A stretch of 64,000 bases of DNA from positions 95,975 through 159,974 of the forward strand of contig CAWDOD010000001.1 of the NCBI GenBank assembly GCA_963803805.1, in the 5' to 3' direction. Origin of the DNA: an uncultured cyanobacterium. GTDB lineage: Bacteria > Cyanobacteriota > Cyanobacteriia > Cyanobacteriales > CAWCAG01. The position numbers and the translations under genes were made by a program. This document shows, piece after piece, positions 21,512 through 48,761 of this stretch; position 1 is the first letter of the stretch, and each line of letters starts with the position of its first letter. Below the pieces are notes generated by a model. That model did not search any database and was not told where the DNA came from. It saw only the letters and a list, made by a program, of their open reading frames with translations.

Positions 21512-21735
21512 TTGTTACAAAGCTGAATGTTGTTTTTATATGCAATTTGTTGCGTATAGCTATGTTATAGTATATGATTGAGAAATGCAAGGTTTTTTCG
21601 CTTTTTTCTGAAACTGTTGCAATTACTACAATATAGATAAGGCAGGAGTTTGCATAGAATATTAATCTTGGTATTGCACGAATATTTCATGGTAGGATAC
21701 AAGTGCAATGAGCAGTTGTCCATCTAGAAGAAATT

Positions 21736-31740: not shown

Positions 31741-32491
31741 CATGTCTGTTGCCAAAGAATTAGCACCTAAGCAAAATAGCCCAGAAGTAGAGGAACAAAC
31801 CTCATCTGGGGAAACTTGGAGGGAACAGCGAGAAGATGTTATCTTTCCTCCTGGTGACTTGTACAGTGATGAACCCCCCTTGGAAACTGAACTGCATCTA
31901 CGGCAAATAATTATCTTGCTGCAAAGCCTCGAATGGTTATGGAAAGATAGAAACGATTTCTATAGTGCTGGTAATCTTACCATTTACTATAGTCCTAACC
32001 AGAAGAAGTCAGAAGACTTTCGCGGCCCAGACTTTTTCGTAGTTTTGGGAGCAGAAAGGAAAACCAGAAAAAGCTGGGTAGTGTGGGAAGAAAATGGTCA
32101 ATATCCCCATGTGATTGTGGAAATTCTTTCTTCTAGTACCGCGAATATAGATAAGGACTTCAAAAAACAACTTTATCAAAACACCTTCCGCACCCCAGAT
32201 TATTTCTGGTTTGACCCCTACAGCTTAGAATTGGCAGGCTTTCATTTAGTAGATGGAGAATATCAGCCTCTAGAAGCTGATAGCCAAGAGCGCCTGTGGA
32301 GTCAGCAGTTAGGTTTGTATTTGGGAATTGACAACGAGCAGTTACGTTTTTTCACCACGGAAGGGAAGTTAGTTCCTACCCCAGAAGAAACCGCAGAAGA
32401 GTTGGCCACTCAAGCAGAGCAATCGGCGGCTCAAGCAGAAAGATTTGCTGCTAAACTGCGGGAGTTGAATATCGATCCTGATGCCATTTAG
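31718..32491 (+). CDS. Uma2 family (DUF820) endonuclease
   Basis: SDEPPLETELH, GPDFFVV, VEILS, YFWFDP; ATG at 31742 is the likelier start. Confidence 0.9.
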   Translation: MKIDRILAMSVAKELAPKQNSPEVEEQTSSGETWREQREDVIFPPGDLYSDEPPLETELHLRQIIILLQSLEWLWKDRNDFYSAGNLTIYYSPNQKKSEDFRGPDFFVVLGAERKTRKSWVVWEENGQYPHVIVEILSSSTANIDKDFKKQLYQNTFRTPDYFWFDPYSLELAGFHLVDGEYQPLEADSQERLWSQQLGLYLGIDNEQLRFFTTEGKLVPTPEETAEELATQAEQSAAQAERFAAKLRELNIDPDAI

Positions 32492-32900
32492 ATTCACAGT
32501 TATTGGTGCTTCGAGGGGTGGGGTGGCAGCTAATCCAAAACTTTCCATGATTTCCCTAGTAGTTAAGTAGCCGTCATCTTCACCAGTAGGGGTAAGGGCG
32601 ATCGCAACCTGTACTAAAAGTTCTCCTCAAGCTCCTACCAACTCCAAAATCAAACCCTTAACCACATCTGGACACCAATCACTACCTAAAATTTCCAACA
32701 ATAAAGGAGAACTTTGGCTCTCAACCTTATAAATCGCCTTCACTAGGAAAAAAAGACGGGCTTCGCCTATTCGGTAGGGACGGTTGAATTAGATAATAGA
32801 CGATGGATAATGGTTTACAGGGATTGATGAGGCTCTAACGGCAGCGATACGTACCTTCTTTTTCACCATACCCCACACCCCACCCCCTAAACCCTGTCTC

Positions 32901-33212
32901 CTTTTGACCTAACTTTTTTTCTGAATAGCCCTTAAGGTGGAAACAAGGCAAAAATTAAGGTTTTGAAATTGTTAAATCCTTTACTATGACTGAATTATAG
33001 CGGTAATTTTGTGCCAAAAATCTAAGGGGGTCAGGGAATGGCTGAAATGCCTATTCTTTCGTTGACCCCCTTAGATTCATATCCCTGTAAGGGTTTTAGA
33101 GGTTGTAATTTGATTTTATTAGAAACTATTGTCAATTATTTAGGGGTAAATTTGACCCCCTTAGATTTGATGGTTTATAATCTTCTCATACCAAGGCTTT
33201 CATAAGCCGAGG
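32901..33212 (+). promoter_or_regulatory. CRISPR leader 1, homologous to 38414-38725
   Basis: Alignable over about 310 bp; last ~75 bp nearly identical. Confidence 0.8.
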
Positions 33213-33394
33213 GGTTCACCAATTACCTAAATTGGTCTTGTTGGAAACCCGCCTAAGCTAGGAGAAAACCCACCAAGGGTTATATCGGGTTCACCAATTA
33301 CCTAAATTGGTCTTGTTGGAAACATGAACTGGAGAGTAGTTGTTGTCTCAGTCATGATGGTTCACCAATTACCTAAATTGGTCTTGTTGGAAAC
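33213..33394 (+). CRISPR. CRISPR array 1: 3 repeats, 2 spacers
   Basis: (G)GTTCACCAATTACCTAAATTGGTCTTGTTGGAAAC; 35-nt core starts at 33214, 33289, 33360. Confidence 0.95.
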
Positions 33395-33416
33395 CTGAAC
33401 AGTTTGCAGAGATAAA

Positions 33417-33444
33417 AAAGGTTAGAGCTTAAGCTCTAACCTTT
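33417..33444. terminator. Perfect 28-bp palindrome downstream of array 1
   Basis: AAAGGTTAGAGCTTAAGCTCTAACCTTT. Confidence 0.65.
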
Positions 33445-33498
33445 AAGTTTTGCTAACACAAGGGCAAAACAAAAAGCTACCAAAATTAGTAAACTTTA

Positions 33499-33534
33499 GT
33501 TTCCAACAATACCGATTAAAGCTAATCGGTGAAG
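33499..33534 (-). repeat. Single inverted CRISPR-repeat variant
   Basis: Minus strand CTTCACCGATTAGCTTTAATCGGTATTGTTGGAAAC; stem preserved by a compensatory change. Confidence 0.8.
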
Positions 33535-33673
33535 CTAGTAATACACCAGACTTGAATTAATCAAAAAAATGTTTTTTCAGTAATTCCTTAATCTAGTGCA
33601 GAACTTACACATAACTGTAGGGGAAATGAACCGAACAAAACAGGTCATTTTGACCTTGATTTTTTCTGTTTAG

Positions 33674-33994
33674 TTATTTACTAACTTTCTCTTTCTCCTG
33701 GCAAAGAATTTCTAAAAGTTCATCAGGAATCTCTTCAAAATGCTCAAGTAGGAAATCCATGAATGCTAAATTCCTCAAATCATGGGGTTGGGGACGACGG
33801 TAATAATGATTCCTTTTGAACCATCTTTGTACAGTAGAGTAGGAACGGGAACAGATTTGAGCCATTTGCTCATAAGTAACTGACCACTTGAGATAAAACC
33901 TTTGGGGAGATAAACCCAACTCGCAATTAGCATAAAGCCTAATTAAATCTAGCTCTCGCTCACCTAAAGAATCTGACATAATATTACTCCACAA
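33674..33994 (-). CDS. Small HTH protein
   Basis: VTYEQMAQICSRSYSTVQRWF. Confidence 0.7.
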   Translation of the reverse strand: MWSNIMSDSLGERELDLIRLYANCELGLSPQRFYLKWSVTYEQMAQICSRSYSTVQRWFKRNHYYRRPQPHDLRNLAFMDFLLEHFEEIPDELLEILCQEKEKVSK

Positions 33995-34301
33995 CTGCTT
34001 CTAAATCTTCTTCCCAAGCAAAATCAAACTGACACCAGGAATAGCTAAAGGAACTGCTATCTAAAACAATTAAATAACACCAACTCCAACTTTTAAGATG
34101 TCGAGAATAAGTGTAAAAAACTCCTGCAATTACTCCCCAATCAAAACAATCATCAAGGGGTAGCCAGCGTACCTTAACCCCATAAACAAACTTGGGTTTC
34201 TTAACTTTTGACCAGTCAATATCTGTCAGTGGTTGCAATTTTGCTAAAGGTAGTAACTGAACCACTGATTGGGTATTTTGTCTCAGCATATCCTCTCCCA
34301 T
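33984..34301 (-). CDS. Hypothetical protein (DUF1392/SH3-like), translationally coupled to cas2
   Basis: PKFVYGVKVRW...WGVIAG...WCYLIVL; start overlaps the cas2 stop. Confidence 0.5.
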   Translation of the reverse strand: MGEDMLRQNTQSVVQLLPLAKLQPLTDIDWSKVKKPKFVYGVKVRWLPLDDCFDWGVIAGVFYTYSRHLKSWSWCYLIVLDSSSFSYSWCQFDFAWEEDLEAVVE

Positions 34302-34579
34302 CAGGCGAAAAAAACTTCATCATCAATGGCATAATCTGGTTTAATTCCTAGTACAGTAACTTTATGGCGACAAGGTTGGGAAAGGGGATAAAATCTCAAC
34401 TGATCCTCCTTGGCATTTAATAACTTACTGAGCCTTGGTAATAGCTTCTTGTACTGGCGTGGATTCAAAACCAGTTCAAACACAGACTTTTGCACTCGCA
34501 AACCGTAAGCTTCCAATAATTTGGATACCCTAGTACGGCGACGGTCATCTACAATGTCATAGCAAACTAAGTAAAACAT
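34301..34579 (-). CDS. cas2: CRISPR-associated Cas2
   Basis: YLVCYDIVDDRRR...RVQKSVFE...DQLRFYPL. Confidence 0.95.
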   Translation of the reverse strand: MFYLVCYDIVDDRRRTRVSKLLEAYGLRVQKSVFELVLNPRQYKKLLPRLSKLLNAKEDQLRFYPLSQPCRHKVTVLGIKPDYAIDDEVFFA

Positions 34580-34583
34580 TAGA

Positions 34584-34616
34584 TAGGTAATAGGTAATAA
34601 GTAATAGGTAATAGGT
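34584..34616. repeat. Heptamer tandem repeat (STRR-like)
   Basis: TAGGTAA x4.7. Confidence 0.7.
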
Positions 34617-34653
34617 GTTACAGCTATTACCTATTTTCTGTCTTGAATTCCTG

Positions 34654-35649
34654 TTAACAATTAGGAAAATTAGTGTGGCATAACATGGGACGATAAAAAT
34701 CTCTGATGCCCACAATGCAAGCTAAATACTCCTTAACCTGTAACTCAATGCAACGGCGATAGGTAACTTTTCCTGCCCGTAAATGCTTCACAGGAGTATC
34801 TAATTTAGCTTCCCAAGCTTTAATGAATTTCCGCAAAGGTAGGGGATAAAGATGGATTTCTCCCTCTTCATCAGGCAAGGTAAAATCAGAGCAATTAATA
34901 ATGCGATCGCTAGTTAATTGAAGAACAAAAGAATCAACAAAAATTGCCCCTAACTCCAGCATTAAATCAGCAACTAAAGGTAAGGTATATTCCACCTCAT
35001 TATGAAAGTTGCTAATATTAGGGTCGAGTCCCACCTGCTCTAAGCAAGTCCTGATTTTGTCCCCTAAAAAGATGTAGCCTAGGTTTAATAAACAAGCTAA
35101 TTGCTGGCTAACTTCATCTTGGTGATAGGTCTTTAACCAGTCTGGAGGCAGCAAACTATCTAAAGCTGTAAAGTAGATTTCATCGGCTTTTTCTTCTAAC
35201 TTAGTAAAGGTATGAAAACCTTTAACCAGAGGCAAATTGTCCTCAATTTTCTTGAGTATGCAAACAGCTTTCTCTACAGATGCTTGATGATTATTTAATT
35301 GCTTAAGTAAATTAGAGCGATTATGACAACTAGCCCTTAAAATACTTTCGGTGGTTTCCCAAGTAAACTCATGGTTTTGGCAATATCGTAACTGCTTTTG
35401 CTGATGCTTGATAGTAGCTTGCCCAGGACTATGATAGGGCTTTTCTTGTTCGAGGAAGAGCAGAGGAATATTGAGAGAGCGTACCAATTTGAGGGCTTCT
35501 TGAGAAATATTAGTATAGCCAAAGAGAACGATTTCTTCGACTTTAGCAATAGCTACTTGGTAAGAAAAGCTGCGATTAGGGAAGACATGAAAGTTGGTTT
35601 TGTCTGCCTTTAATAAAGCTCCTGGTTCAGGAATATAGAGAGTAGTCAT
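34654..35649 (-). CDS. cas1: Degenerate Cas1 paralog
   Basis: MTTLYIPEPG, IVLFG, LLNLGY, NFH, LVADLMLE; aligns with the Cas1 domain of RT-Cas1. Confidence 0.85.
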   Translation of the reverse strand: MTTLYIPEPGALLKADKTNFHVFPNRSFSYQVAIAKVEEIVLFGYTNISQEALKLVRSLNIPLLFLEQEKPYHSPGQATIKHQQKQLRYCQNHEFTWETTESILRASCHNRSNLLKQLNNHQASVEKAVCILKKIEDNLPLVKGFHTFTKLEEKADEIYFTALDSLLPPDWLKTYHQDEVSQQLACLLNLGYIFLGDKIRTCLEQVGLDPNISNFHNEVEYTLPLVADLMLELGAIFVDSFVLQLTSDRIINCSDFTLPDEEGEIHLYPLPLRKFIKAWEAKLDTPVKHLRAGKVTYRRCIELQVKEYLACIVGIRDFYRPMLCHTNFPNC

Positions 35650-35822
35650 GTTCTAAAAAAGATAAACAAGTAATAAGTAAAAGCCTGTATTTGTCCAGAT
35701 AACTTGTTAGTTTTTTCTGAGATTTGACTTTTAACTTGCTTCCATCTTTTCAGTGGCTATATGAGTACTTGTATGAGTAAAAATGGAAAAGTATGAGTTG
35801 ATATATGAGTTTTATATGACTT

Positions 35823-35852
35823 AAAAAAAAGCTAGAGAATTAATCTCTAGCT
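35823..35852 (-). terminator. Intrinsic terminator after the wHTH gene
   Basis: AGCTAGAGA-N5-TCTCTAGCT with a T8 tract on the minus strand. Confidence 0.7.
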
Positions 35853-35858
35853 GGAGGG

Positions 35859-36152
35859 CTATTGTTTTTGGTAATTTAGCCGTTTGAGCATCTTTTTGCC
35901 CTTACTTTTGCTAATTCGGAAGCTGAGTTTACCGTTTTTGCTGCTACGTTGAACAACTCGAATAAAGCCTTCATCTTCCAAACCTAACAAGTGATGACTA
36001 AGCCGAGATATATCACCTCCTCGTAAATGACTTAAAGCGCATAATTGAGCTTTAGTAATCCCAGGTTGAGTTGCGATCGCTAGGAAAAGAATTTTCCTAA
36101 CTCCGGAAAGAGGTTTCCGCAAGGGATGACCTCGGTGCGACAACAATTTCAT
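35859..36152 (-). CDS. Winged-HTH (MarR/ArsR-like) regulator
   Basis: ILFLAIATQPGITKAQL...SRLSHHLLGLEDEGFIRV...FRISKSKG. Confidence 0.7.
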   Translation of the reverse strand: MKLLSHRGHPLRKPLSGVRKILFLAIATQPGITKAQLCALSHLRGGDISRLSHHLLGLEDEGFIRVVQRSSKNGKLSFRISKSKGKKMLKRLNYQKQ

Positions 36153-36332
36153 GGTTGCACCGAGGTATATGAGTATCTGTATGAGAAGATTTGTCTGACT
36201 AAATACATTCCTAGCTCATAGGAAAGTTAAATCGTTTTGGAACAACTCATACAACCCCTCAAGAAAAGTCATACAAGTACTCATATAGCCCCTGAAAACA
36301 TGGAAGAGAAGTAAATTCAAGGGGTAAATAGG

Positions 36333-38309
36333 ATGCAAATTGAACCAATAGAACTGATAACAGCTTGGCAACAAGTGCGTAATCGTAGTCCGGCGGCGGG
36401 GGTAGATGGTATTACCTTAGATTTGTTTGCGGGGGTAGCCAAAGAACAACTAAGAAACTTAAAACGAGAACTGGAACGGGAATACTACCAAGCCAGTCCT
36501 GCTAAAGGTTTTTACTTAAAGAAAAAGAGCGGAGGTCAACGTTTAATTGGTATTCCCACAGTACGCGATCGCGTGGTACAAAGATTGACCCTCCAATCAA
36601 TTTACCCCACCTTAGAAACGGAATTTCCCACCCATAGTTATGGCTACCGTCCAGGGCATTCTGTACAAATGGCCATAGAACATTTCTCGGAATATTACCG
36701 AGAAAGACCCACTTGGGTAATCAAAGCAGATATTGCTCAGTTCTTCGATAGCCTTATTTGGGCCATTTTGCTCGAAAGTCTCGAAGATATTGCTATAGAG
36801 CAGTTTTGGGAACAGCTTATTGCCGGGCAATTGCAGGCGGGAATAAGGTTGCAAGGGCAGTGGTTTAACCCTGGTAAAGGAGTATTACAAGGAGGCATTT
36901 TATCAGGTGCTTTAGCAAACCTTTACCTCAGTGAGTTTGACCGTTACTGTGCTGATTTTGGTATCCAAATTGTGCGCTATGGGGATGATTTTGTCATTGC
37001 CACTGGAGGTTTATTAGAAGCTACAAGGGTTTTAGCCCAAGTGAGTCAGTGGTTGGAGGATATTTACCTAACCCTACAACCAGAGAAAACCCAGATTTTT
37101 GCCCCTAGTGAGGAGTTTGTTTTCCTGGGCTATAGGTTTCAGGGGGGAGAAATTATTCCCCCTCCCTCTAAAAGTCGTAGCACCTCAGCTAAACCCAAAC
37201 AAAGACCAGCACCAGAATCCAGACCCCCCAAAGCCTGTAGCATCCTCAAACCTTCTTCCTACCACCATCAAGTCAACCAAGATTTTTACTGGAGTGATTC
37301 TATGACTACTCTTTATGTGACTGAACAGGGAGCCTATCTCAAGGTACGACACCAACAGTTTCAGGTTTTCCACCACCAGGAATTACGCATTACTGTTCCC
37401 GTGAATCGGGTGAGCCATATTGTTCTCTTTGGCTGTTGTAATCTTTCCCACGGGGCAGTGCAACTGGCCCTGAAACGACGTATTCCGGTGATGTATCTTT
37501 CCCACCAAGGACGTTACTTCGGCCGTTTACAAACCGATGGCATGGCAGAAATTGATTACCTCCTATTGCAAATGCAGCGTCATCAAGAACCAGCTTTTCA
37601 ACGTCGGCAGGCAGAAGTTATAGTTATGGCTAAACTGCACAATTCCCGTAAGCTGTTACTACGGATGAATCGGGGCAAAAAGATTACTAAGGTGAATAAA
37701 GCCGTTAATAAAATTGCCCAGATTATTGATAAGCTACCCTCCGCTAAATCTGTTGAGAGTTTGTTAGGTTATGAAGGGCAAAGCGCCCATTTATACTACC
37801 AAGCTTTAGGAATGCTTTTTAATGGTAAGTTTGCCTTCGAGAAGCGTACCCGCCGTCCTCCCACCGACCCCATTAATAGTCTGCTCAGTTTGGGTTATAC
37901 TCTGTTGCACCAAAATGTTTTTTCTTTGGTACAGGCAGTAGGTTTACATACCCATTTTGGTAATCTCCATACCCCCCGTCGTAATCATCCGGCTTTAGTT
38001 TCTGATTTAATCGAGGAGTTTCGCGCCCCAGTGGTGGATTCTTTCATTGCTTACTTGGTTAATTCCAAGATTTTCAAGCAAGGGGATTTTACTCCAGCAG
38101 ACGGAAGGGGTGGGGTTTATCTTCATCCTGGTTCTTTGCGGAAGTATCTTAAGCATTGGCAAGAGAAGTTACAGACTCAGGTTACTCACCCCCATACAGG
38201 TTATAAGGTGAGTTATTACCGTTGTTTGGAGTTACAGGTTTGGGAGTATATTGCTTGTTTGAAGGGAGAGCAGGAGGTTTATCGGCCGATGATGTGGAAG
38301 ATCAAATAG
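36333..38309 (+). CDS. cas1: Reverse transcriptase-Cas1 fusion
   Basis: RT motifs AGVDG, GIPTVRDR, ADIAQFFD, QGG, RYGDD; Cas1 motifs GYEG, RRPPTDPIN, GNLH, SDLIEEFR. Confidence 0.95.
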   Translation: MQIEPIELITAWQQVRNRSPAAGVDGITLDLFAGVAKEQLRNLKRELEREYYQASPAKGFYLKKKSGGQRLIGIPTVRDRVVQRLTLQSIYPTLETEFPTHSYGYRPGHSVQMAIEHFSEYYRERPTWVIKADIAQFFDSLIWAILLESLEDIAIEQFWEQLIAGQLQAGIRLQGQWFNPGKGVLQGGILSGALANLYLSEFDRYCADFGIQIVRYGDDFVIATGGLLEATRVLAQVSQWLEDIYLTLQPEKTQIFAPSEEFVFLGYRFQGGEIIPPPSKSRSTSAKPKQRPAPESRPPKACSILKPSSYHHQVNQDFYWSDSMTTLYVTEQGAYLKVRHQQFQVFHHQELRITVPVNRVSHIVLFGCCNLSHGAVQLALKRRIPVMYLSHQGRYFGRLQTDGMAEIDYLLLQMQRHQEPAFQRRQAEVIVMAKLHNSRKLLLRMNRGKKITKVNKAVNKIAQIIDKLPSAKSVESLLGYEGQSAHLYYQALGMLFNGKFAFEKRTRRPPTDPINSLLSLGYTLLHQNVFSLVQAVGLHTHFGNLHTPRRNHPALVSDLIEEFRAPVVDSFIAYLVNSKIFKQGDFTPADGRGGVYLHPGSLRKYLKHWQEKLQTQVTHPHTGYKVSYYRCLELQVWEYIACLKGEQEVYRPMMWKIK

Positions 38310-38413
38310 GAATGAGGAATGCGCCAAGCTTTTTAAGCTTTGAGCAGTTGGCTTTTGAGTAACTTTTCCTTACACCTTTTTCAGCACAAAGCTGTTGTAA
38401 AAAGTCAAGTTCG

Positions 38414-38725
38414 TTTTGACCTAACTTTTTTCCTGAATAGTTCCTAAACTGGAAACAAGGCAAAAATCACGGTTTTATAATTGCCAAATCACTTGCTCTG
38501 CATAACTTTTAGCTTGAAAAATCTTCTTGAGATCCGTAGGGGTCACCGAATGGCTGAAACCCTTATTCTTTCGTAGACCCCTGCGGATCTACTTCTGTGT
38601 AAGGGGTCTAGAGCTTATGAACAAGTGTTTATTAGTAAGAATTCTCAACTATTTGGGGGTAAATTTGACCCCCTCGGATTTGATGGTTTATAATCTCCTT
38701 ATACCAAGGCTTTCATAAGCCAAGG
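38414..38725 (+). promoter_or_regulatory. CRISPR leader 2
   Basis: Homologous to leader 1. Confidence 0.8.
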
Positions 38726-39170
38726 GGTTCACCAATTACCTAAATTGGTCTTGTTGGAAACACCTAAACCCCCCATTACTTTGTCAACATTGTTCAAGGT
38801 TCACCAATTACCTAAATTGGTCTTGTTGGAAACCAATATCATCTGACTTTTCATCCATAAACTTACTTGCTGGTTCACCAATTACCTAAATTGGTCTTGT
38901 TGGAAACAGTAAGCATGGAGTGGCGTCAATGCCTACGCAAACCCGGTTCACCAATTACCTAAATTGGTCTTGTTGGAAACCTTCACTAGGGGTTTTTCCA
39001 GTGCCTTCAAATGGGTTCACCAATTACCTAAATTGGTCTTGTTGGAAACCGGTGTAGTCGAAAAGAGAGAGACTAATCATCATAAGAAGTTCACCAATTA
39101 CCTAAATTGGTCTTGTTGGAAACCACTTTAAAAACAAGGCGGTCAAAAAGCCCAAAAAGGGTTCACCAAT
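38726..39170 (+). CRISPR. CRISPR array 2: 6 full repeats, 6 spacers, 7th repeat cut by ISAs1
   Basis: Cores at 38727, 38799, 38873, 38946, 39015, 39089; partial GTTCACCAAT at 39161. Confidence 0.96.
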
Positions 39171-40422
39171 CAGGGCGAACGCATCTAAATAGAGTGAAAA
39201 GCGCGAAAGTAAGAAACAAAGAAGTAGATTAGTACAACAACGCCAGAAATCTGAGAATCTACTGCAATGAAACTAAAACCGAAAATCACACTAATAGACC
39301 ACTTCACAGAATTAACAGACCCAAGGGTAGAGCGAACAAAAGAACATAAGCTAATAGATATAGTGGTGATAGGGATTTGTGCAGTAATCTGTGGAGCAGA
39401 CACCTGGGTGGGAATAGAAACCTATGGCAAAGCAAAATACCAATGGTTAAAGCAGTTCTTGGAGCTAGCAAATGGAATACCATCTCATGATACTTTTTCA
39501 AGGGTGTTTGCTCGTATAGACCCAAAGGAATTTCAAGGCTGTTTTCTGAGTTGGGTAAAATCAATCAGCAAGTTGATTCCATCGGAAGTTATCAGCATAG
39601 ATGGTAAAACTCTGAGACATTCTGAGGACAAAGGAAGTAACAAAAGAGCAATTCATTTGGTAAGTGCCTGGGCAAGTTCTCAAAGATTAGTACTGGGACA
39701 ACAGAAAGTAGAGGAAAAGTCCAATGAAATTACCGCAATACCTGAGTTACTAAAGGTCTTGGAAATATCAGGATGTATAGTCACAATTGATGCGATGGGA
39801 ACTCAGAAAAAAATTGCCCAACTAATCATTTCTCAAGAAGCTGACTATTGCCTGGCCCTAAAAGGCAATCAAGGAAACATCCATGAAGATGTCAAGCAAT
39901 TATTTACTCAAGCCCAAGCTCAACAATGGCAAAATATCGACCATAACTTCTTTGAGACGGTAGAGAAAGGTCATGGGCGTGTTGAGATTCGCCGTTATTG
40001 GACAATGGCCAATGTGGAATTTTTAATTGATAGTGAGCAATGGGTTGGACTTAAGAGTATTGGTATGGTTGAATCAAAGCGGACTTTTGCAGGAGAAACT
40101 ACCTCGGAAATTCGCTACTATCTCAATAGTTTTCCTTCTGATGCCCAAATGTTTGCCCATGCTGTTCGTAGTCACTGGGGAGTGGAAAATTGCCTTCATT
40201 GGGTCTTAGATGTTGCCTTTAGGGAGGATGATTGTCCTATTCGTAAAGATAATGCTCCTGAAAATTTTGCTTTACTACGCCACATTGCTCTCAATCTTCT
40301 TTCCCAGGAGAAAACTGCCTCTATGGGAGTTCAGAACAAGCGTCTTCAAGCTGCTTGGGATGATGACTATCTTGCCAGAGTTTTGAGAATTTGACCTTTT
40401 ATTTTTAGATGCGTTTGCCCTG
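39171..40422 (+). mobile_element. ISAs1-family insertion sequence
   Basis: IRs CAGGGCGAACGCATCTAAA and TTTAGATGCGTTTGCCCTG (1 mismatch). Confidence 0.92.
39267..40394 (+). CDS. ISAs1 transposase
   Basis: DPR, IPSHDTF, IDGKTLR, KSNEI, TIDAMG, HWGVEN. Confidence 0.95.
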   Translation: MKLKPKITLIDHFTELTDPRVERTKEHKLIDIVVIGICAVICGADTWVGIETYGKAKYQWLKQFLELANGIPSHDTFSRVFARIDPKEFQGCFLSWVKSISKLIPSEVISIDGKTLRHSEDKGSNKRAIHLVSAWASSQRLVLGQQKVEEKSNEITAIPELLKVLEISGCIVTIDAMGTQKKIAQLIISQEADYCLALKGNQGNIHEDVKQLFTQAQAQQWQNIDHNFFETVEKGHGRVEIRRYWTMANVEFLIDSEQWVGLKSIGMVESKRTFAGETTSEIRYYLNSFPSDAQMFAHAVRSHWGVENCLHWVLDVAFREDDCPIRKDNAPENFALLRHIALNLLSQEKTASMGVQNKRLQAAWDDDYLARVLRI

Positions 40423-40457
40423 CGTTGCTGAGGCTCTAACTTTCTTTTAATTGATAC

Positions 40458-40808
40458 TTGTTTTATACTTGCTTAAGTAAGTTCGTTTTAAGCAAAGGGT
40501 GGGAAGTATTGATTGCTGGTAGAACGCCTGAACTAACCATTAAATTTACTGAAAAACCGGAACTGCCTGAGCAAGGTAAGAAAGTTGCTTTAGAAGTAAA
40601 AGCAGAAAATGGTGCTGTTGTGAGAGCGGAGGTTAATCGGAAGACTCTTAAAAAGCAGTTAACTAAAGCTGAGACAGAGGGATGGGACAGTTGGATAGCA
40701 GTGCTTTCTGGAAAAATGAGTTCTTTTTCTGAAGAAGGTGTAATCGAATTAGAAGGTGCAGGAGTAAGTATTTTTGGCTCTACCAAACTTGCAATGTCAA
40801 ACTATTAA
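40458..40808 (+). CDS. Hypothetical OB-fold-like plasmid protein
   Basis: ELTIKF...WIAVLSGK; start uncertain. Confidence 0.4.
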   Translation: MFYTCLSKFVLSKGWEVLIAGRTPELTIKFTEKPELPEQGKKVALEVKAENGAVVRAEVNRKTLKKQLTKAETEGWDSWIAVLSGKMSSFSEEGVIELEGAGVSIFGSTKLAMSNY

Positions 40809-41527: not shown

Positions 41528-41887
41528 CTAGTCATTATTAGGAAAAGTGCATTTAACCTCAATAGCAACATTACTTTCTGCCGAACCTTCAGTGATGTAA
41601 GGAATACCAGCTTTACCGCCAATCTTCAAACCAAAAGAAATTTTAACTTCCTCAACATTTGCAGCACTAAAATTTCTAAAGGCACTAATCACATAAGTTG
41701 CGTAACCTCGAATCATCCTGGCAGCTTTTTTCATCTCAACAGTTCTACTGTTTCCTCCCCGGCCTGGACGACCATCACCCTCATCATCTTTAGGAAAATC
41801 TACTGATTTAGTTTCAATAAAAATTTCGTACTCTTCACCCTTATCGTCAGTGTAGGTAAGCTTTTGAATTTGGGAAGGTTCAGGCAT
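41528..41887 (-). CDS. CU044_2847/Trypco-like peptidase co-occurring protein
   Basis: VEEVKISFGLKIGGKAGIPYITEGSAESNVAIEV; divergent from the caspase gene. Confidence 0.75.
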   Translation of the reverse strand: MPEPSQIQKLTYTDDKGEEYEIFIETKSVDFPKDDEGDGRPGRGGNSRTVEMKKAARMIRGYATYVISAFRNFSAANVEEVKISFGLKIGGKAGIPYITEGSAESNVAIEVKCTFPNND

Positions 41888-41966
41888 AATGAAAACTCTC
41901 CTGACAAGAATAATGACTGTTTGCTAAGATTCTACAATCTATTGTTACAAAAGCTATTGCTCCCAG

Positions 41967-43529
41967 ATGGCTAAACGCTATGCTTTAGTAGTTGCGATTT
42001 CAAAGTATGAACACTTACGTCCTCTGGAGAATGTGATCAGAGATGGAAAAGCTATTGCCCAGAAATTAGACGATCATGGTTTTGGAGTAACAAAATATCC
42101 TCCAAAATGGATTGAAAAAGAATATCGCGAAGAACTTAAGTCATCTTTGGTATCTACTGAAGATTTATTACGCGAAATAGAGGAGTTTCTTTTTGATACA
42201 GCCCAAAACAGTGAAGCTCTAATCTACTTAGCTGGTCATGGTTTAAGAGTAAAAGGTTGCTCTCAGAGAATCCCTCCCAAAGCCTACTTTGCTGTTTCTG
42301 ATAGTCGCAGCGATGGTAGAAATGCCATCCCTTTTACAGACCTCAATACCCTTTTTGCTCAAGCTCGTAGTGAAGCTCATTTAAGCAGCTTAGTAGTTTT
42401 GCTAGATTGCTGTCATGCAGGTATGGCTTTTGAGGGAACCGTTGAAAGAGAAATATTCCAATCTAGTTTTACAGCCTTTCAGAACCAACCTAGCTACGGA
42501 ATTTTGGCATCTTGCCGTGGTCATCAAGAGTCTTATGAATTGGGGGAACATGGCTTATTTACCAGCAAAGTACTTGAAGGGCTGAAGCCAGGGAATGCTG
42601 ATGAGAATGGCGTAATTTCTTTTAATCGCCTTGCCGATTACGTTAACCTGAAGCTGCAAAATATGGGTCAAGAATCGGTTGATTTAGCTTTTAAGGGTTC
42701 GGCAATTCAATTGGTAAGTTACTCAAAGGAATTAATCTCAGACATAACAGGAACAGCTCAAAATAGTTTCATCCAAGCTCTACAGGAACTAAATTATGCA
42801 GGTGAAGATAAACTATTTACAGATTTTCTTGAGGTAGAATCACCATCCTTGCCAGTAGGTGCGTTTTGGATACGTGCTGAAGAGGGTGGTGGTCAGCGCT
42901 GGTTAATAAACCGCCTCTGGCAAAAGAAAGTCCCTTTCTACCCTCAAGCTATTAAATATCCCTTCTTCATCAATAAAAGGTGGACAATCAACACAATCTG
43001 GGAAAAAGTAGGAGCTACTTTAGCCGTAGGAACTGAACCAGAAGAGATTGTCGAAGAACTGTACAACTTTTGGGTCAAACCTAATACGGTAGCTTTAGCC
43101 TTATACGGAGTAGAACGTTTGACGAAGGCTGATTTAGAAGAGCTATTCATCTCCTTTTGGCGACCCTTAACCCAAAAAGCTGCTCAGCAAAGTAATTCAG
43201 ACCTACCTTTGCTACTATTTTTAATTGACACTGGTATTAAAGATAACTGTGATTGCTGTTTAGAGCATCTCCAAGAATATGACTGCGATCGCCCTTGGCT
43301 ACCCGTTGAATTCCCTTTAAAGCCTTTTAGGAGAAAAAGCTTAGTTAACTGGGCCAACGCTCACCACCAAATAATTCAACCTTTGTTGAGAAACTGCTCA
43401 TCAATGCAAGAATTTAATCAGCAGCTCGAAAGTTGTAACCGTCGCGAGGATCTATGTCCAGAAGACGTGCTAGAAAAAATTTGTCAACTTTGTGGCCAAG
43501 AGCATTTTGAAATAACTTTCAACATTTGA
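41967..43529 (+). CDS. Caspase-like (C14) peptidase fused to an inactive-STAND-like domain
   Basis: YALVVAISKY; catalytic dyad LAGHG and LDCCHAG. Confidence 0.85.
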   Translation: MAKRYALVVAISKYEHLRPLENVIRDGKAIAQKLDDHGFGVTKYPPKWIEKEYREELKSSLVSTEDLLREIEEFLFDTAQNSEALIYLAGHGLRVKGCSQRIPPKAYFAVSDSRSDGRNAIPFTDLNTLFAQARSEAHLSSLVVLLDCCHAGMAFEGTVEREIFQSSFTAFQNQPSYGILASCRGHQESYELGEHGLFTSKVLEGLKPGNADENGVISFNRLADYVNLKLQNMGQESVDLAFKGSAIQLVSYSKELISDITGTAQNSFIQALQELNYAGEDKLFTDFLEVESPSLPVGAFWIRAEEGGGQRWLINRLWQKKVPFYPQAIKYPFFINKRWTINTIWEKVGATLAVGTEPEEIVEELYNFWVKPNTVALALYGVERLTKADLEELFISFWRPLTQKAAQQSNSDLPLLLFLIDTGIKDNCDCCLEHLQEYDCDRPWLPVEFPLKPFRRKSLVNWANAHHQIIQPLLRNCSSMQEFNQQLESCNRREDLCPEDVLEKICQLCGQEHFEITFNI

Positions 43530-43545
43530 GGATTAACTTAGCATC

Positions 43546-44529
43546 ATGACAGGGAAACTAAACTATTCTGGAGAGCCAAAATATCAACCCCAAAAACCTG
43601 GCTTAGATAGCCAGGGAAGGCGTTTATTTCCCTATCTGCCAGAGCCAAATCTAATCAAAGCTGTCAATCTAGCCCTAGCCTTGGAGCGTCCCCTGCTCAT
43701 ACAAGGTGAACCAGGTTGCGGTAAAACCCTCATTGCTAGAGCTATTGCCTACGAATTTGGTCAAAAGTATCTTCAAGGTAAAGAGGAATGGCCCTATTTC
43801 CGTTGGAATATCACCTCCCGCACTGAAGCTCAACAAGGGCGCTACACCTTCGATGCTTTGGGTAAGCTGCGAGATGCTCAAATGGTAGGTATAGAATACC
43901 TTACCCCACAACAAAGAGGAGCTTTAAACCAAAGGTTAGCAGACCCTGAAGGTTACATACTTTGGGGGCCATTAGGTCAAGCCTTTCGTGAACAAAACCA
44001 TCGTCCCATACTACTAATAGATGAAATAGATAAAGCTGATGTAGACTTTCCCAACGACTTACTCTCAGAACTAGAAGAACCTCGCTTTAGGGTTACTGAA
44101 ACTCAAAAGCCAGTTGTGGCTAGACAGCAGCCCATTGTCATCATCACCAGTAACTCAGAAAGAGAACTTCCCGAAGCCTTTTTAAGACGCTGCTTATTTT
44201 ATTGGTTGGAGTTTCCTGAAGAAACAAGGTTGCGAAAAATAGTCTCTTTACACTTTCCTGAGTATGAACTAGTAAAGCTATTTGACCAAGCCATTTCTCA
44301 ATTTTTCAAAGTTCGTAATAAACTTGCGACTCGAAGAAGTGGCAATAAGCAGGCTAGCACCAGTGAGCTACTTGATTGGCTAAGGATTTTGACTAACTTA
44401 CCTGCTGAGGAGGCTTTGATAGCAGTAGAAAATGTTTTTACTGATGCTGCTCAGCTTGGTATCTTGGTTAAATCTAAAGCAGATTTAGAAGCAATCAAAA
44501 GAGATATTGGTGAGGTAAATAATCAGTAG
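43546..44529 (+). CDS. MoxR family AAA+ ATPase
   Basis: GEPGCGKT, LLIDEIDKAD, TSNSERELPEAFLRRC. Confidence 0.93.
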   Translation: MTGKLNYSGEPKYQPQKPGLDSQGRRLFPYLPEPNLIKAVNLALALERPLLIQGEPGCGKTLIARAIAYEFGQKYLQGKEEWPYFRWNITSRTEAQQGRYTFDALGKLRDAQMVGIEYLTPQQRGALNQRLADPEGYILWGPLGQAFREQNHRPILLIDEIDKADVDFPNDLLSELEEPRFRVTETQKPVVARQQPIVIITSNSERELPEAFLRRCLFYWLEFPEETRLRKIVSLHFPEYELVKLFDQAISQFFKVRNKLATRRSGNKQASTSELLDWLRILTNLPAEEALIAVENVFTDAAQLGILVKSKADLEAIKRDIGEVNNQ

Positions 44530-44532
44530 AAA

Positions 44533-45588
44533 ATGGTGAGTCTACCTACCTTACCCTTGTTTGAATTGTTCCAAGAGTTGCGTGTACCTCTTTCGCTGCA
44601 ACCAGATCAGTATGTCTGGCTTTTGGAAGGACTGAAGCAGGGTTTTGGTTGTGAAAGTGTAGATGACTTGAAAGAAGTTTGTCGTCTGCTCTGGCTGAAA
44701 TCAAGAGATTCCCAAGCTGAAAAAGCATTTGAAACTACTTTCAATCGCTACATTAAAAAACATCAACAAACACTTCAATCAGTAACAACATCCTCATCAG
44801 CGAGAAAAGAAACTGTAAACCGCTCAACAAGCCAACAAAATACATATCCAACTTATCAACCAGCTACTAATCAAACCACAGCGCCTCAAAGCACTAGCTC
44901 CAACCTGCGTTTAACTAGTGCTTATCAAACAACTCAAGAAATGGAAGTCACTCAATCTCAGCAAGGCTATATTCTCAAAGTCAGTGATTTTCCTTTCTTA
45001 TTACGCCAAACACGCCATGCTTGGTTACGTCTGCGTTATCCTCAAAAAAGAGGAGAGACTTCTCAGATTGACATACCAGCAACAATAAGAAAAATTGGTT
45101 GTTATGGTATTTGCCTAGAGCCAGAAACAAAACCACAACTGATTAATCAAATTGAGTTGGTCTTTTTAGAAGATAGAGAAGGTTCAATGATTCCTTTTCG
45201 TCCTATAATTGATGGTTTATTTACCACAGTAGAAAAGAACCGTTTTCAGAGAGTTTATCGCTACTTTTTCCGTAACTGTCCTGGTGATTTCGTCTATTTA
45301 CGACCCAAAGGAACAGATACTATCCTTTTAGAAGACTTACCCTTAAGACCGCAAAGAACTATTTTAGTAATTATTAGTGATGCTGGTGCTGCTAGGGGAG
45401 GTCATAGTTTTCGTAGACTGGAGATGACAGAAAAATTTTTGAGTGCAGTACAGCCAAGAATAAAATCTTTACTGTGGATTAATCCCTTACCTTACAAAAG
45501 GTGGACAGGAACAACCGCAGCAGATATAGCTGGTTTGATGGGAGTCAAAATGTTTGAAATGTCCGCTATCAGTGAATATTTATCATGA
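44533..45588 (+). CDS. vWA/CoxE-like protein
   Basis: DREGSM, ISDAGAARG, WINPLP. Confidence 0.85.
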   Translation: MVSLPTLPLFELFQELRVPLSLQPDQYVWLLEGLKQGFGCESVDDLKEVCRLLWLKSRDSQAEKAFETTFNRYIKKHQQTLQSVTTSSSARKETVNRSTSQQNTYPTYQPATNQTTAPQSTSSNLRLTSAYQTTQEMEVTQSQQGYILKVSDFPFLLRQTRHAWLRLRYPQKRGETSQIDIPATIRKIGCYGICLEPETKPQLINQIELVFLEDREGSMIPFRPIIDGLFTTVEKNRFQRVYRYFFRNCPGDFVYLRPKGTDTILLEDLPLRPQRTILVIISDAGAARGGHSFRRLEMTEKFLSAVQPRIKSLLWINPLPYKRWTGTTAADIAGLMGVKMFEMSAISEYLS

Positions 45589-47237
45589 ATCTAACCAAGG
45601 AAAGGGAGAAAGCAAAAGATGAGGTAATACGCTTTACCCAAAAGTGGGGAAGAGATTACCTTAATTTGGCTTGTCATGCTGCCTTTCCTTTAGCCATAAC
45701 CCCAGAGTTGGCTTATTGTCTGCGTGAGAATTTCCTCCCTGAGTGTCCTTGGTTTGCTGTTGCCGACTTGATTTTATCTTCCCTTTGTGACCCAGTAGGA
45801 GATGAATTATATGAGATGGATGCCATAGTACGAGATGTGCTGCTACGCCGTCTAGCTAAGGATGCGCGATTCGGGGCAGCTCGTCTTCAGAGTATGGGGG
45901 AGTTTATGGGAGCTTACATTGGGGCAAAGTTACCAACAAATTCCCTAGCAGGACGTGATTTTGGTGTCGGTTTAGAATGGGTAGCTTTGGCATATATTCA
46001 TAGTGAAGATGCTAATCTATTGCGGGAAAAAATTCAGCAAGAATTGCAAAGAGGACGAGGAGAAGTAAGAGAGCGCTTAGCTAGTTTTCTAGATGCTCAA
46101 GAAGATTTATTAGTTGCTGCTGGTTTAGAACCGTTGCTTATTTCTACTCAAGTTCAATTAGATATTGGTGTAATCTTAGAAACTTTTGAAGCGGAAATTG
46201 TCAGCATTATTTCTGAAGAAGAATCTCAAACTGAGGAAGAGTATAGCACTTGGGAATTTGAAACAGTTTTTGTTAATGAGCGAGGAGAAATTATTGAAAC
46301 TCAGCAGTGCCAAGGTTACTACTTTGAGGAGTTTTTAGCAGAGGATGTACCTCCTTTGGTAATGGTAGCTATACCTGAAGGAGAATTTATTATGGGTTCT
46401 CCTCCGGAAGAGAAAAAAAGATACGATGATGAAGGGCCCCAACATCCTGTTAAAGTTAAACCCTTTTTTATGGCTCAAACTCCCATTACTCAAGGACAAT
46501 GGCGTATTGTAGCAGCAATGGAACAGGTAGGAAAAGAGTTAGACCCTAATCCTTCCAACTTTAAAGATGATGACCATCCTGTGGAGGAAGTGAGTTGGTA
46601 TGATGCCATAGAATTTTGCGCTCGGTTGTCGCGTCATACAGGTAAAGATTATCGTCTGCCTAGTGAAGCTGAGTGGGAATATGCTTGTCGGGCAGTTACC
46701 AGTGAATCATCATGGCTTACGGAAGAAGGTGAACCATTTCTTACTGAACAGGGTGAACAATTGCTAACTGAGGGGGAGCCTGATATTAGAAAAAGTTCTT
46801 ATTCTCCTTTTCATTTTGGTGAGACTCTTACAACTGATTTAGCTAACTATAATGGTTCAGTGTATAAGAATGAGCCTGAAGGAAAAAGTCGAGGTGGAAC
46901 TAGCCCTGTTAAGAGTTTTCCACCTAATGCCTTTGGTTTATACGATATGCACGGGTTAGTTTGGGAGTGGTGTTTAGATCCTTGGCATGGGAGCTATGAA
47001 AACGCACCAGCAGATAGTAGGGTGTGGGATGAAGAAAATAATGATAATCATTATCAAAAAATAGCGGATAATATTAAAGTTTTGTTAAGTGATGAGCGTA
47101 GTCGTATTCGGCGCGGCGGTTCCTGGTTCAGCTCTCCGAGGGTCTGTCGCTCTGCTTCTCGCGTCGTCGACTATCCCGATTTTCGTAGCTTCAGCTACGG
47201 TTTTCGTGTTGTCTGCGGAGCTGCGAGGACTCTTTAG
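45585..47237 (+). CDS. DGR target 1: helical N-terminal domain + FGE-sulfatase (C-type lectin fold) domain
   Basis: RLPSEAEWEYACRA, NAFGLYDMHG, RGGSW, GFRVV; VR at the 3' end. Confidence 0.92.
   Translation: MNLTKEREKAKDEVIRFTQKWGRDYLNLACHAAFPLAITPELAYCLRENFLPECPWFAVADLILSSLCDPVGDELYEMDAIVRDVLLRRLAKDARFGAARLQSMGEFMGAYIGAKLPTNSLAGRDFGVGLEWVALAYIHSEDANLLREKIQQELQRGRGEVRERLASFLDAQEDLLVAAGLEPLLISTQVQLDIGVILETFEAEIVSIISEEESQTEEEYSTWEFETVFVNERGEIIETQQCQGYYFEEFLAEDVPPLVMVAIPEGEFIMGSPPEEKKRYDDEGPQHPVKVKPFFMAQTPITQGQWRIVAAMEQVGKELDPNPSNFKDDDHPVEEVSWYDAIEFCARLSRHTGKDYRLPSEAEWEYACRAVTSESSWLTEEGEPFLTEQGEQLLTEGEPDIRKSSYSPFHFGETLTTDLANYNGSVYKNEPEGKSRGGTSPVKSFPPNAFGLYDMHGLVWEWCLDPWHGSYENAPADSRVWDEENNDNHYQKIADNIKVLLSDERSRIRRGGSWFSSPRVCRSASRVVDYPDFRSFSYGFRVVCGAARTL
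47114..47237 (+). repeat. DGR variable repeat VR1
   Basis: 11 differences from TR, all at TR adenines, plus one 3' T/G difference. Confidence 0.95.
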
Positions 47238-47358: not shown

Positions 47359-47706
47359 TTGAGAGTGAATGAGTTACCAATTATTCAAAAAACCTATGAT
47401 TTAATCAAATGGTATATTCCTATTATCAACCGCTTACCTCGTAATCATCGTTTTGCTTTAGGAGAGCGTATTACTGACAACCTTTACAATTTATTAGAAA
47501 ATTTACTTCGCGCTCGTTATCTCAAAGAAAACAAATTACAATTTCTTAGTAATCTCAATACTCAAATAGATATTTTACGTTATCAAACCCGCTTATTATA
47601 TGACTTTAGCCTAATTTCTGAACGCCGCTACGGTTATGTTAATCAACAAATTGATAGTATTGGTAAAGATTTAGGTGGCTGGATTAAGTCTTTGAAAAAA
47701 TTATGA
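47359..47706 (+). CDS. avd: DGR accessory variability determinant
   Basis: [11 protein letters not shown]...RFALGERI...IGKDLGGW; overlaps the RT start. Confidence 0.92.
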
Positions 47707-48761
47707 AGCGCTACGGCAATCTCTGGTCACAAATTACTGCCTGGGAAAATTTACTTCTAGCCTCGCGTCAAGCTCAAAAAGGCAAGCGCTTTCGAGATAA
47801 TGTCTTAGCTTTTAATCACAACCTGGAAAAGGAGTTGCTGCAACTACAAAAAGAACTACAGGAGAGAACTTATCTACCAGGTCAATACAAAACCTTTAGA
47901 ATTTTTGAGCCAAAACCGCGTCTAATTTCCGCAGCACCTTATCGAGATAGAGTAGTTCACCACACTTTTTGCAATATCGTTGCTCCTCTTATTGAAAAAT
48001 CTTTCATTCCCGATAGTTATGCTAATCGTCAAGGGTATGGAACTCATAGAGCTTTGAAGCGTTTTATTAAGTTTGCTCGCTCTAGCCGCTACATTTTGCA
48101 GTGTGACATTTGTAAATACTTTCCTAGCCTTGACCATGAAATTCTGAAAAGAATGCTCAGAAGTAAGATTAAATGCCAAGAGACACTCTGGTTAATTGAG
48201 CTAATTATTGATAGTAGTAATGCTCAGGAAGCAGTTGTTGATTACTTCCCTGGAGATGATCTGTTGACTCCTGTTATGAGGCGTAAAGGCTTACCAATTG
48301 GTAATTTAACTAGCCAGTTTCTCGCTAACTTTTATCTTGATAAGTTTGACCATTTTATCAAACACGAACTCAAAGTAAAAAAATACTTACGTTATGTAGA
48401 TGACTTTGCGTTGTTCAGTGATGATCTAGAATTTTTGCGACAAGCTCGTTACGCTATAGAAGACTATTTAACCACCATTCGCTTAAAAATACATCCTATC
48501 AAAAGTCAGTTATTTGCTACTGAATATGGAGCAAATTTCTTGGGATTTCGTATTTTTCCTGAGCGAATCAGAGTTCGCAATGATAACCTCCGCAAAGCTA
48601 GACGCAGGCTTAAAAAACTACAACGAAGTTATGCTCAAGGACAAGTTAGTCTAGAAAAGCTTTGCCAAAGTCTCCAGAGTTGGGAAGCTCATTTGAAATA
48701 TGGGGATACTTACCAGCTACGAAAAGATATATTCAGGCACTACAGTTTTTCTCGCCAGTAG
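47703..48761 (+). CDS. DGR reverse transcriptase
   Basis: [40 protein letters not shown]. Confidence 0.95.

Follow-up and report, generated by a model that had tools for sequence, protein, structure and literature searches.

The locus described here raises a simple question. What is a second Cas1 protein with a damaged active site doing beside a Cas1 that is fused to a reverse transcriptase (RT) and keeps all of its catalytic residues? The stretch of DNA that we analyzed, hereafter the window, is 64,000 nucleotides (nt) long and reaches to the end of a 159,974-bp contig (C1) in the 5.3-Mb, 11-contig genome of an uncultured cyanobacterium (G000), a host assignment borne out by 10 phycobilisome-family matches in that genome. 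Near its middle lie a gene for an RT-Cas1 fusion and, divergent from it, a short operon for an RT-less Cas1, Cas2 and two small proteins, with a CRISPR array on either side. We use the name Cas1b for this second, RT-less Cas1 family that partners RT-Cas1. An earlier inspection of the DNA letters (the sequence-only reading) had proposed a hetero-oligomeric integrase of RT-Cas1, non-catalytic Cas1 and Cas2, forming a mobile cassette that feeds effectors in trans, and each sequence feature that it named was found where it had been placed. As the accessible text of two papers makes plain, the pairing of RT-Cas1 with an extra cas1 has been known since 2017; what is added here is the loss of catalytic residues under selection.

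The fusion appears fully equipped. Its gene (36333-38309, plus strand) is a single open reading frame (ORF) of 658 amino acids (aa), in which a group II intron-like RT with a YxDD motif stands N-terminal to Cas1 (RVT_1, E = 2e-35; Cas_Cas1, 1.6e-88; TIGR04416, 3.8e-73). The RT motif reads VRYGDDFVIA, and the Cas1 domain carries the complete Glu/His/Glu triad (in GYEG, GNLH and DLIEEFR) together with GRYFGR and RRPPTDPIN, which confirms the intact YGDD and Cas1 triad previously read from the sequence. Pfam and NCBIfam scans found no Cas6 domain in the module. In the tree described below, the window's fused domain groups with 31 other RT-fused Cas1 domains from the same order, and all 21 RT-fused domains in a joint alignment keep both the triad (GYEG, GNLH and DL[MIV]EEFR) and RRPPxDP.

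Cas1b (34654-35649, minus strand; 331 aa) is also recognizably a Cas1. It matches Cas_Cas1 (E = 2.3e-42) over positions 1-282 of 283 and TIGR00287 (7.8e-45) above the cut-off, and its closest solved structure is the Synechocystis Cas1 of 7cr6 (E = 3.9e-23). With the Cas1 domain of RT-Cas1 it shares 35% identity, and it departs from that domain at three places: DLMLELG replaces the fusion's DLIEEFR, YHQDEVSQQL replaces RRPPTDPINS, and GRYFGR is missing. The earlier description of a degenerate second Cas1 is accurate for these motifs but needs one qualification, as the catalytic Glu and His are retained and only the third catalytic residue is changed, to Leu.

Loss of the triad extends through the family. 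Among 20 Cas1b proteins aligned with MAFFT, one has all three residues, five have two (the window's included), 10 have one, and four have none. When these and five extra Cas1b proteins from a second batch of loci were placed on a profile of fused domains with hmmalign, the corresponding counts were one, six, 14, and four, leaving the triad incomplete in 24 of 25. The third catalytic position is Ala in 11 proteins, Leu in three, and Val and Ser in one each (16 of 20); the His is kept in 15 of 20 and has become Tyr or Ser in the other five, and RRPPxDP, a DNA-contacting motif, is degenerate in nearly all. A wider sample gave the same picture. We ran the Cas1b profile against 1.84 billion representative proteins and scored the best 149 with both profiles. 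Among these best 149, 25 scored better with the Cas1b profile by a margin above 50 bits; setting aside one fragment that lacks the relevant columns, none of the 24 clear Cas1b representatives has the full triad. The RT-fused/canonical profile was preferred by 118, with the triad present in 116; the two exceptions are a truncated protein and a borderline Cas1b-like protein. From these residues, we infer that Cas1b is enzymatically dead.

Is such a protein simply decaying? For nine close pairs of loci, the ratio of nonsynonymous to synonymous substitution rates (dN/dS, Nei-Gojobori) was 0.10-0.16 for Cas1b, 0.05-0.11 for RT-Cas1, and 0.04-0.13 for Cas2. The sequence-only reading had named neutral evolution of the second Cas1 as a point to check, and evolution is not neutral: selection is purifying both in these nine pairs and within the genus of the window (0.147-0.215). 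A maximum-likelihood tree built from 66 Cas1 sequences unites the 25 Cas1b proteins in one clade (ultrafast bootstrap 98, SH-like approximate likelihood-ratio test 93) nested within a radiation of RT-linked Cas1, which is itself split from seven other Cas1 at 100/100; the Cas1b branches are long, and the exact placement of the clade in the tree is uncertain. Mean pairwise distance is 0.65 for Cas1b and 0.29 for the partner Cas1 domain, and mean column identity is 45% and 79% for Cas1b and the fused domain, respectively. The tree and the substitution rates indicate that the Cas1b family is a single, old lineage held by purifying selection. With the caveat of long branches, it appears to have arisen once within the RT-linked Cas1 lineage, to have lost catalytic residues, and to evolve about twice as fast as its partner.

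To find how widely the two proteins occur together, we searched for the window's Cas1b in 401 genomes of the same order, 104 of which contained matches at E ≤ 1e-20. Pairings were counted by hand, among the matches listed and outside G000. At least 48 of these matches are in open frames long enough for an RT fusion (≥580 aa). For 26 of the 48 listed, the same contig carries a Cas1 of stand-alone size no more than about 17 kb away, for six such a Cas1 is on another contig of a draft assembly, and for 16 there is none at E ≤ 1e-20. We then fetched 19 paired loci because they were paired, which makes the presence of Cas1b in them a matter of construction. In this first batch, cas2 directly follows cas1b in 19 of 19, a homolog of the window's helix-turn-helix (HTH) protein is present in 18, and one of its 105-aa protein in seven. 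Compared with their counterparts in the window, the RT-fused Cas1 domains are 60-71% identical, the Cas2 proteins 57-73%, the HTH proteins 50-68%, and the Cas1b proteins only 26-39%. Twelve of the 16 seemingly unpaired loci were re-examined with hidden Markov models built from our own alignments, and a more divergent Cas1b emerged in five. RT-Cas1 with a Cas1b-Cas2-(small protein)-HTH operon is a conserved module in many cyanobacterial genera. A Cas1b search of a genome-contig collection for further related loci returned 122 pattern matches, of which none was confirmed.

The locus has a syntenic counterpart, 86-91% identical in DNA, in a genome of the same genus (G027), where RT-Cas1, Cas2, the small ORF, and the HTH gene are intact. 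Between the two genomes, dN/dS is 0.215 for the N-terminal part of Cas1b and 0.147 for its C-terminal part, compared with 0.054 for RT-Cas1, 0.068 for Cas2, 0.088 for the HTH gene, and 0.31 for the small ORF. A third lineage is represented by the protein P0002, which shares 86% (BLASTP) or 92% (MAFFT) identity with the window's Cas1b and has the same degenerate motifs; it is open through 334 aa, where the record ends about 21 residues before the point matching the C-terminus of the window's Cas1b. Both DLMLELG and the CRISPR repeats are identical in G000 and G027, and there are no spacers in common (two and six in G000, six and seven in G027). Spacer acquisition therefore appears to have continued after the degenerate state arose. 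The argument from G027 spacers is weakened by the fact that G027 also has two loci with RT-Cas1 and no Cas1b.

The two arrays give the module its frame. From 32899 to 40423, the order is leader A, array A, a hairpin, the minus-strand cas1b operon, a 97-aa ORF, RT-cas1, leader B, array B, and an insertion sequence (IS) of the ISAs1 family. The arrays (33213-33394 and 38726-39123) and a Cas2 gene (34301-34579, minus strand; 92 aa; Pfam CRISPR_Cas2, E = 1.6e-24; TIGR01573, 1.2e-19) thus stand in the immediate vicinity of RT-Cas1. Array A (33213-33394, plus strand) has three 36-nt repeats and two spacers of 39 and 35 nt, and a bidirectional, terminator-like 12-bp hairpin follows at 33417-33444. 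In array B (38726-39170, plus strand), six full repeats (38726-39123) enclose five spacers; a sixth spacer comes next, and of a seventh repeat there is an 11-nt stump (39160-39170). The nine full copies of the repeat are identical save for a single mismatch in one, in agreement with the identical repeats on both sides that had been reported earlier. A feature absent from the sequence-only reading is the duplication, at 76-92% identity, of the roughly 310 nt ahead of each array. Leader A (32899-33212, plus strand; ~310 nt) carries a sigma-70-like promoter, TTGACC-18-TATAAT, at 33152-33181, some 30 nt ahead of the first repeat, and leader B (38411-38725, plus strand), its copy, carries the promoter-like site at 38665-38694. 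These 11-of-12 promoter matches are the two best promoter-like sites of the region, and the leader is conserved in two leaders of G027.

Array B is cut by the ISAs1 element (39171-40423, plus strand; transposase 39267-40394; NF033564 transpos_ISAs1, E = 6.3e-135), whose terminal inverted repeats are visible. The seventh repeat ends at the element and the rest of it was not found beyond the IS, which means that sequence has been lost or rearranged at this junction. As to what the spacers may target, those of the window gave only chance 14-18-mer matches against their own genome, those of array B had no match in a phage collection, and the whole locus had no near match in a plasmid collection. 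An Rfam scan of 32000-40500 returned one sub-threshold chance match only, and a sequencing-run lookup listed no RNA runs and six metagenome DNA rows with shares of 0.21 or less. In G027, near-duplicate spacers occur in different arrays (L042:12436-12472 and L042:17693-17730), with a one-base offset and a 4-nt indel; they look like two captures from variants of one target.

What would such a module serve? We scanned 61 of the 62 longest non-overlapping ORFs (≥80 aa) of the window against Pfam, eight at E ≤ 0.01 and 53 at E ≤ 1e-5; the remaining one is a 90-aa ORF at the window edge. No cas6, cas10, csm, or cmr gene was matched among these 61 ORFs, so the absence of these genes noted earlier holds across the scanned window. 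The genome at large is no more forthcoming. The module's repeat occurs in the two window arrays and nowhere else in the 5.3 Mb, the genome's single Cas6 is part of a type I-D locus (contig C10), and no Cas10 and repeat-associated mysterious protein (RAMP) genes are linked to arrays with this repeat. There are two type III-B-like loci, at about 27-35 kb on C1 and about 427-437 kb on C2, but the arrays on their flanks use another 36-nt repeat, one that ends in GTTGAAAC. Both are damaged when compared with intact orthologs elsewhere: on C1, the Cmr3-like, Cmr4-like, and Cmr6-like genes are spread across two or three frames, and on C2, Cmr2, a Cmr4-like gene, and Cas1 are all split. The Cmr4-like gene is broken at a similar place in both (L020, G000:C1:18001-38000; L021, G000:C2:422001-442000). 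Assembly error was considered as the source of these frameshifts and dropped, given that the junctions lie outside long homopolymers and long window ORFs elsewhere are intact, an assessment made at the level of the assembly only. Around the C1 locus there are also two pairs of CRISPR arrays (C1:354-4660 and C1:22542-26833) with mutually reverse-complementary spacers, which may reflect a large inverted duplication or an assembly artefact.

The module in this strain consequently stands alone, without a cognate effector. This does not make it unusual. At least one effector-associated gene lies in the fetched span of 16 of 32 related loci (11 when an uncharacterized 597-aa neighbor is left aside), and five of the 15 clade-3 records in the accessible table of Toro et al. 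(2017) have none, so that an effector-less neighborhood is ordinary for the RT-Cas1/Cas1b family. The proposal that the cassette feeds effectors in trans found no support, since its repeat is unique to the window, the Cas6 sits in the I-D locus, and the III-B loci combine another repeat with frameshifts; the genome search for type III effectors sharing the repeat, which had been suggested as a check, likewise found none. Nor did the label of a mobile cassette gain support, as only an upstream integrase and the downstream IS were seen; neither ends of an element nor target duplications came to light, with no test aimed at them. As to the idea that effectors were deleted beyond ISAs1 in this strain, sequence was lost or rearranged at the junction; the region downstream of the G027 locus holds XisH-type genes and a third array, and not effectors. 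Taking together the cut array, the missing cognate Cas6 and effector, and the frameshifted III-B loci, present-day interference is doubtful.

Parts of this arrangement have been recorded before. In the accessible text of Toro et al. (2017; PMC5541045), an extra cas1 without an RT stands beside RT-Cas1 in cyanobacteria, in a group named RT-CRISPR clade 3, and Table 1 gives 15 records for that clade (four Cmr, six Csm, five none). A type III-B-RT locus of Arthrospira platensis described by Silas et al. (2017; PMC5513706) also has an extra cas1, as far as the available portion of that paper goes. The present locus shares with both the RT-Cas1, a separate RT-less cas1, adjacent arrays, and a cyanobacterial host, and it shows both features that the available text gives for clade 3, a cyanobacterial host and an additional, more distant cas1 (here at 34654-35649). 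It differs from the clade 3 and A. platensis loci, as these are presented there, in having no adjacent effector and one array cut by an IS. The sections of the two papers that we could draw on give the extra cas1 no role and do not mention catalytic loss; the residue loss is found here. Toro et al. remark, in the accessible part of their text, that the two cas1 genes “have no common ancestor,” whereas in our tree Cas1b is one clade inside RT-linked Cas1, again with the caveat of long branches. A 2021 review of prokaryotic RTs (PMC8632793) covers the characterized Cas6-RT-Cas1 proteins of Marinomonas mediterranea and Thiomicrospira and the RT-Cas1 proteins of Vibrio vulnificus and Fusicatenibacter, and the extra cas1 is not discussed in its accessible text. 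Our literature search, whose coverage left out many subscription papers, found no description of the second Cas1 as inactive or as having a role.

Compared with the characterized RT-Cas1/Cas2 integrases, which are associated with type III arrays, the module has the same group II intron-type RT, complete Cas1, and Cas2 partner; PDB entry 7kft was matched in a search with the proteins of the locus. It differs from them in lacking a Cas6 domain and in adding a degenerate Cas1 and two small conserved proteins. To our knowledge, every characterized RT-Cas1 integrase uses one kind of Cas1 protomer. In canonical Cas1-Cas2, a Cas1 tetramer with a Cas2 dimer, two of the four identical Cas1 protomers catalyze integration, and in solved complexes one Cas1 per dimer engages the substrate end. 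Cas1b has the Cas1 fold over its full length, as canonical Cas1 does; the asymmetry would here sit in two genes, one for a catalytic and one for a non-catalytic protomer, and not in the use made of identical subunits.

How, then, might the second Cas1 be explained? We consider it about evenly balanced whether Cas1b is a non-catalytic Cas1 subunit or accessory that binds in the RT-Cas1/Cas2 integrase; this is the best reading of the locus, with a strong case from sequence comparison for the non-catalytic partner and with binding as its conjectural part. The module would consist of RT-Cas1, Cas2, Cas1b, the HTH protein, in some loci a protein with a predicted SH3-like barrel, and at least one array with its own leader and promoter. 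Under a division of labor, the likeliest mechanism, RT-Cas1 would do the chemistry, being the sole carrier of a complete Cas1 active site and of the reverse transcriptase, and Cas1b would take the non-catalytic Cas1 positions of an RT-Cas1/Cas1b/Cas2 integrase or contribute to it in some other structural or accessory way. A fuller version is more tentative, and we would put it a little below even: a natural heteromeric integrase in which Cas1b is a pseudo-enzyme, permanently non-catalytic, RT-Cas1 performs reverse transcription and integration, and the HTH and SH3-like proteins recognize the leader or the substrate. Perhaps Cas1b leaves room for just two bulky RT domains, or sets the polarity of spacers. 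A two-chain complex prediction for the RT-fused Cas1 domain and Cas1b scored 0.00, but control complexes were not folded, and it therefore gives no verdict. RT-Cas1 integrases record RNA into DNA and are of interest for immunity to RNA phages and as transcriptional recorders. The proposal turns a curiosity of gene lists into a testable hypothesis, namely that a pseudo-enzyme subunit sets the stoichiometry or the polarity of the integrase. If true, the fuller version would make this the first example of a Cas1-Cas2 integrase whose functional asymmetry is laid down in separate genes.

Several observations weigh against this proposal, and they lend themselves to other explanations of the locus. 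Cas1b is missing from seven of the 12 re-examined RT-Cas1 loci; five of the seven have an unbroken RT-Cas1-Cas2-(small protein)-HTH operon, two of them in G027, and the remaining two have RT-Cas1 with little else. Loci with and without Cas1b thus represent two architectures, in which Cas1b is common but not obligatory, and the five operons without it offer a natural comparison. In G027, an internal deletion has split the Cas1b ortholog of the syntenic locus into ORFs of 155 and 103 aa with intact neighbors. In some lineages, then, the protein is dispensable, an outcome that the sequence-only reading had itself listed as telling against its idea. The window's Cas1b has a terminal branch of 1.04, the third-longest in the tree against a median of 0.14, and it has no C-terminal tail of the kind, ending in LVK or LVR, that most Cas1b proteins bear. 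In this genus, Cas1b could accordingly be a dispensable passenger that is being lost, with RT-Cas1 and Cas2 as the working integrase, like that of the characterized RT-Cas1 systems, and the decayed motifs as a sign of relaxed constraint, and its dN/dS between G000 and G027, three to four times that of RT-Cas1, fits such an account. That same dN/dS, 0.15-0.21 at a dS of about 0.5-0.66, nevertheless lies far under 1, and the low values between the two genomes imply that Cas1b was constrained through most of their divergence and that the break in G027 is recent. In G000 the ORF is uninterrupted, as it is through 334 aa in P0002, the family-wide range is 0.10-0.16, and intact Cas1b ORFs are present in 24 other loci; we regard the passenger explanation as unlikely, though worth keeping in view. 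Divergence in the two proteins also runs in parallel, as distances among Cas1b correlate with those among the partner Cas1 domains (Mantel r 0.66, reached by 0 of 2000 permutations), a correlation that is confounded by shared species history. The hetero-oligomeric integrase proposed earlier gains partial support from the conserved Cas1b family, its residue loss, purifying selection, and co-divergence, as would be expected of a non-catalytic subunit; physical association of the proteins is conjecture, and Cas1b would be an optional member.

The damage to the active site can itself be questioned. All 25 Cas1b proteins have the Asp of DLxE, a Glu one residue past the lost third Glu, at +4, is kept in 17 of 20, another two residues ahead of the lost first Glu, at -2, is present in 13 of 20, and the closest relative of the window's Cas1b (that of L043) retains all three triad residues. 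The invariant Asp and the neighboring Glu residues mean that an altered active site is possible in some Cas1b. If so, Cas1b might still be an enzyme and form with Cas2, whose gene shares its operon and not that of RT-Cas1, a separate, parallel integrase, for example for DNA spacers, with a site rearranged from the Asp and the neighboring or upstream Glu; the His kept in 15 of 20 would suit this as well. We think it very unlikely, as none of the canonical triad residues is left in four of 25 Cas1b, Tyr or Ser takes the place of the His in five of 20, and RRPPxDP is degenerate almost throughout. The third-site substitution also resembles those used to inactivate Cas1 experimentally. A different kind of doubt concerns the locus as a whole, which in this strain might be no more than a relic, inert, with its small arrays left behind on an accessory replicon once the effector partner was lost and its genes preserved by inertia only. 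The arrays are indeed small (two and six spacers, against up to 67 repeats elsewhere), array B is interrupted by ISAs1 with the rest of its repeat missing, the repeat occurs nowhere else in the genome, whose sole Cas6 is in the type I-D locus, and both III-B loci are frameshifted, with the Cmr4-like gene broken in each. Yet the dN/dS of RT-Cas1, Cas2, and the HTH gene is 0.05-0.09, the leaders and promoters are conserved, and spacer turnover between G000 and G027 is complete, and we judge a relic to be rather improbable. The preferred reading, a non-catalytic subunit or accessory of the RT-Cas1/Cas2 integrase, accords with the family-wide constraint on a protein that has mostly lost its triad.

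The two small proteins of the cas1b operon are part of the same picture. The final gene (33674-33994, minus strand) encodes a 106-aa HTH protein, HTH106, with a match to HTH_23 (E = 3.8e-4) under the Pfam cut-off. It has 22 invariant columns across 23 sequences and homologs in 18 of 19 first-batch and eight of 12 second-batch loci. Its AlphaFold2 model is all-helical, with a predicted local distance difference test (pLDDT) score of 73, and its matches to XRE-type HTH folds are weak (E ≥ 0.19). The gene before it (33984-34301, minus strand) encodes the 105-aa protein, a short form among relatives of about 96-194 aa, with homologs in 13 other loci. It belongs to no Pfam, NCBIfam, or PADLOC family; its conserved, Trp/Cys-rich C-terminal domain of some 80 residues is predicted to be an SH3-like beta-barrel (AlphaFold2, pLDDT 81). 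In Foldseek, the best match (E = 0.011; chromo-barrel, KOW, and Tudor-like folds) was below significance. Profiles of the two proteins found nothing credible among PDB sequences, the best for the 105-aa protein being designed repeat proteins over 38 residues (E = 0.0026), and a PADLOC scan of both proteins gave no match. A role in leader recognition or regulation is speculation on our part. Between the divergent operons lies a 97-aa ORF (35859-36152, minus strand), a possible winged-helix regulator that belongs to no Pfam or NCBIfam family and in PADLOC weakly matches the C-terminal portion of CARF3 models (E = 1.2e-3). Homologs adjoin RT-Cas1 in L059, L068, L069, and L075, and the copy in G027 is interrupted by a TnpB element.

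Some related loci have further neighbors. In two genomes of one genus (L050:10272-11273 and L051:10392-11399), there is a third, RT-less Cas1 with a complete triad that groups with the RT-fused Cas1 domain of its own locus, pointing to a recent duplication. RT-Cas1 is directly adjoined by a divergent ORF of about 1150-1270 aa, without a Pfam family, in six loci (L046:11145-14618, L047:10800-14270, L048:1301-4915, L050:11397-14966, L051:11741-15307, and L058:416-4225); PADLOC, run on those of L046 and L050, assigned neither to a family. Another neighbor of RT-Cas1, a DUF4384 protein of about 250 aa, occurs in seven loci (L044, L045, L054, L055, L056, L057, and L061). In L044 and L045, it is followed by a TPR protein (e.g., L045:10841-15539), and that of L045 also has a CHAT protease domain. 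Such DUF4384/TPR neighbors are possibly a coincidence in TPR-rich cyanobacteria.

The rest of the window holds other systems of note. Directly after the IS, the cluster at 41528-45588 encodes Trypco1, a caspase (Peptidase_C14) with an inactive-STAND domain, an AAA ATPase, and a VWA protein, and looks like a conflict or defense system. A diversity-generating retroelement with a bAvd-like gene and an RT follows at 47359-48761, flanked by two genes of the FGE-sulfatase fold (45585-47237 and 49076-49948) that may be its targets. Upstream of the module, at 12449-13411, 14435-15922, and 20522-22488, are genes for DUF4007 (SspB-like), C-5 cytosine methylase, PAPS-reductase-domain, and MT-A70 methylase proteins, which may be DNA-modification or restriction modules. 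Toward the far end, a copper-resistance island (51661-63652) includes two multicopper oxidases, CopB, a P-type ATPase, and a two-component system, and a 39-nt tandem repeat is present in 6.4 copies (52741-52991) inside the first multicopper oxidase gene.

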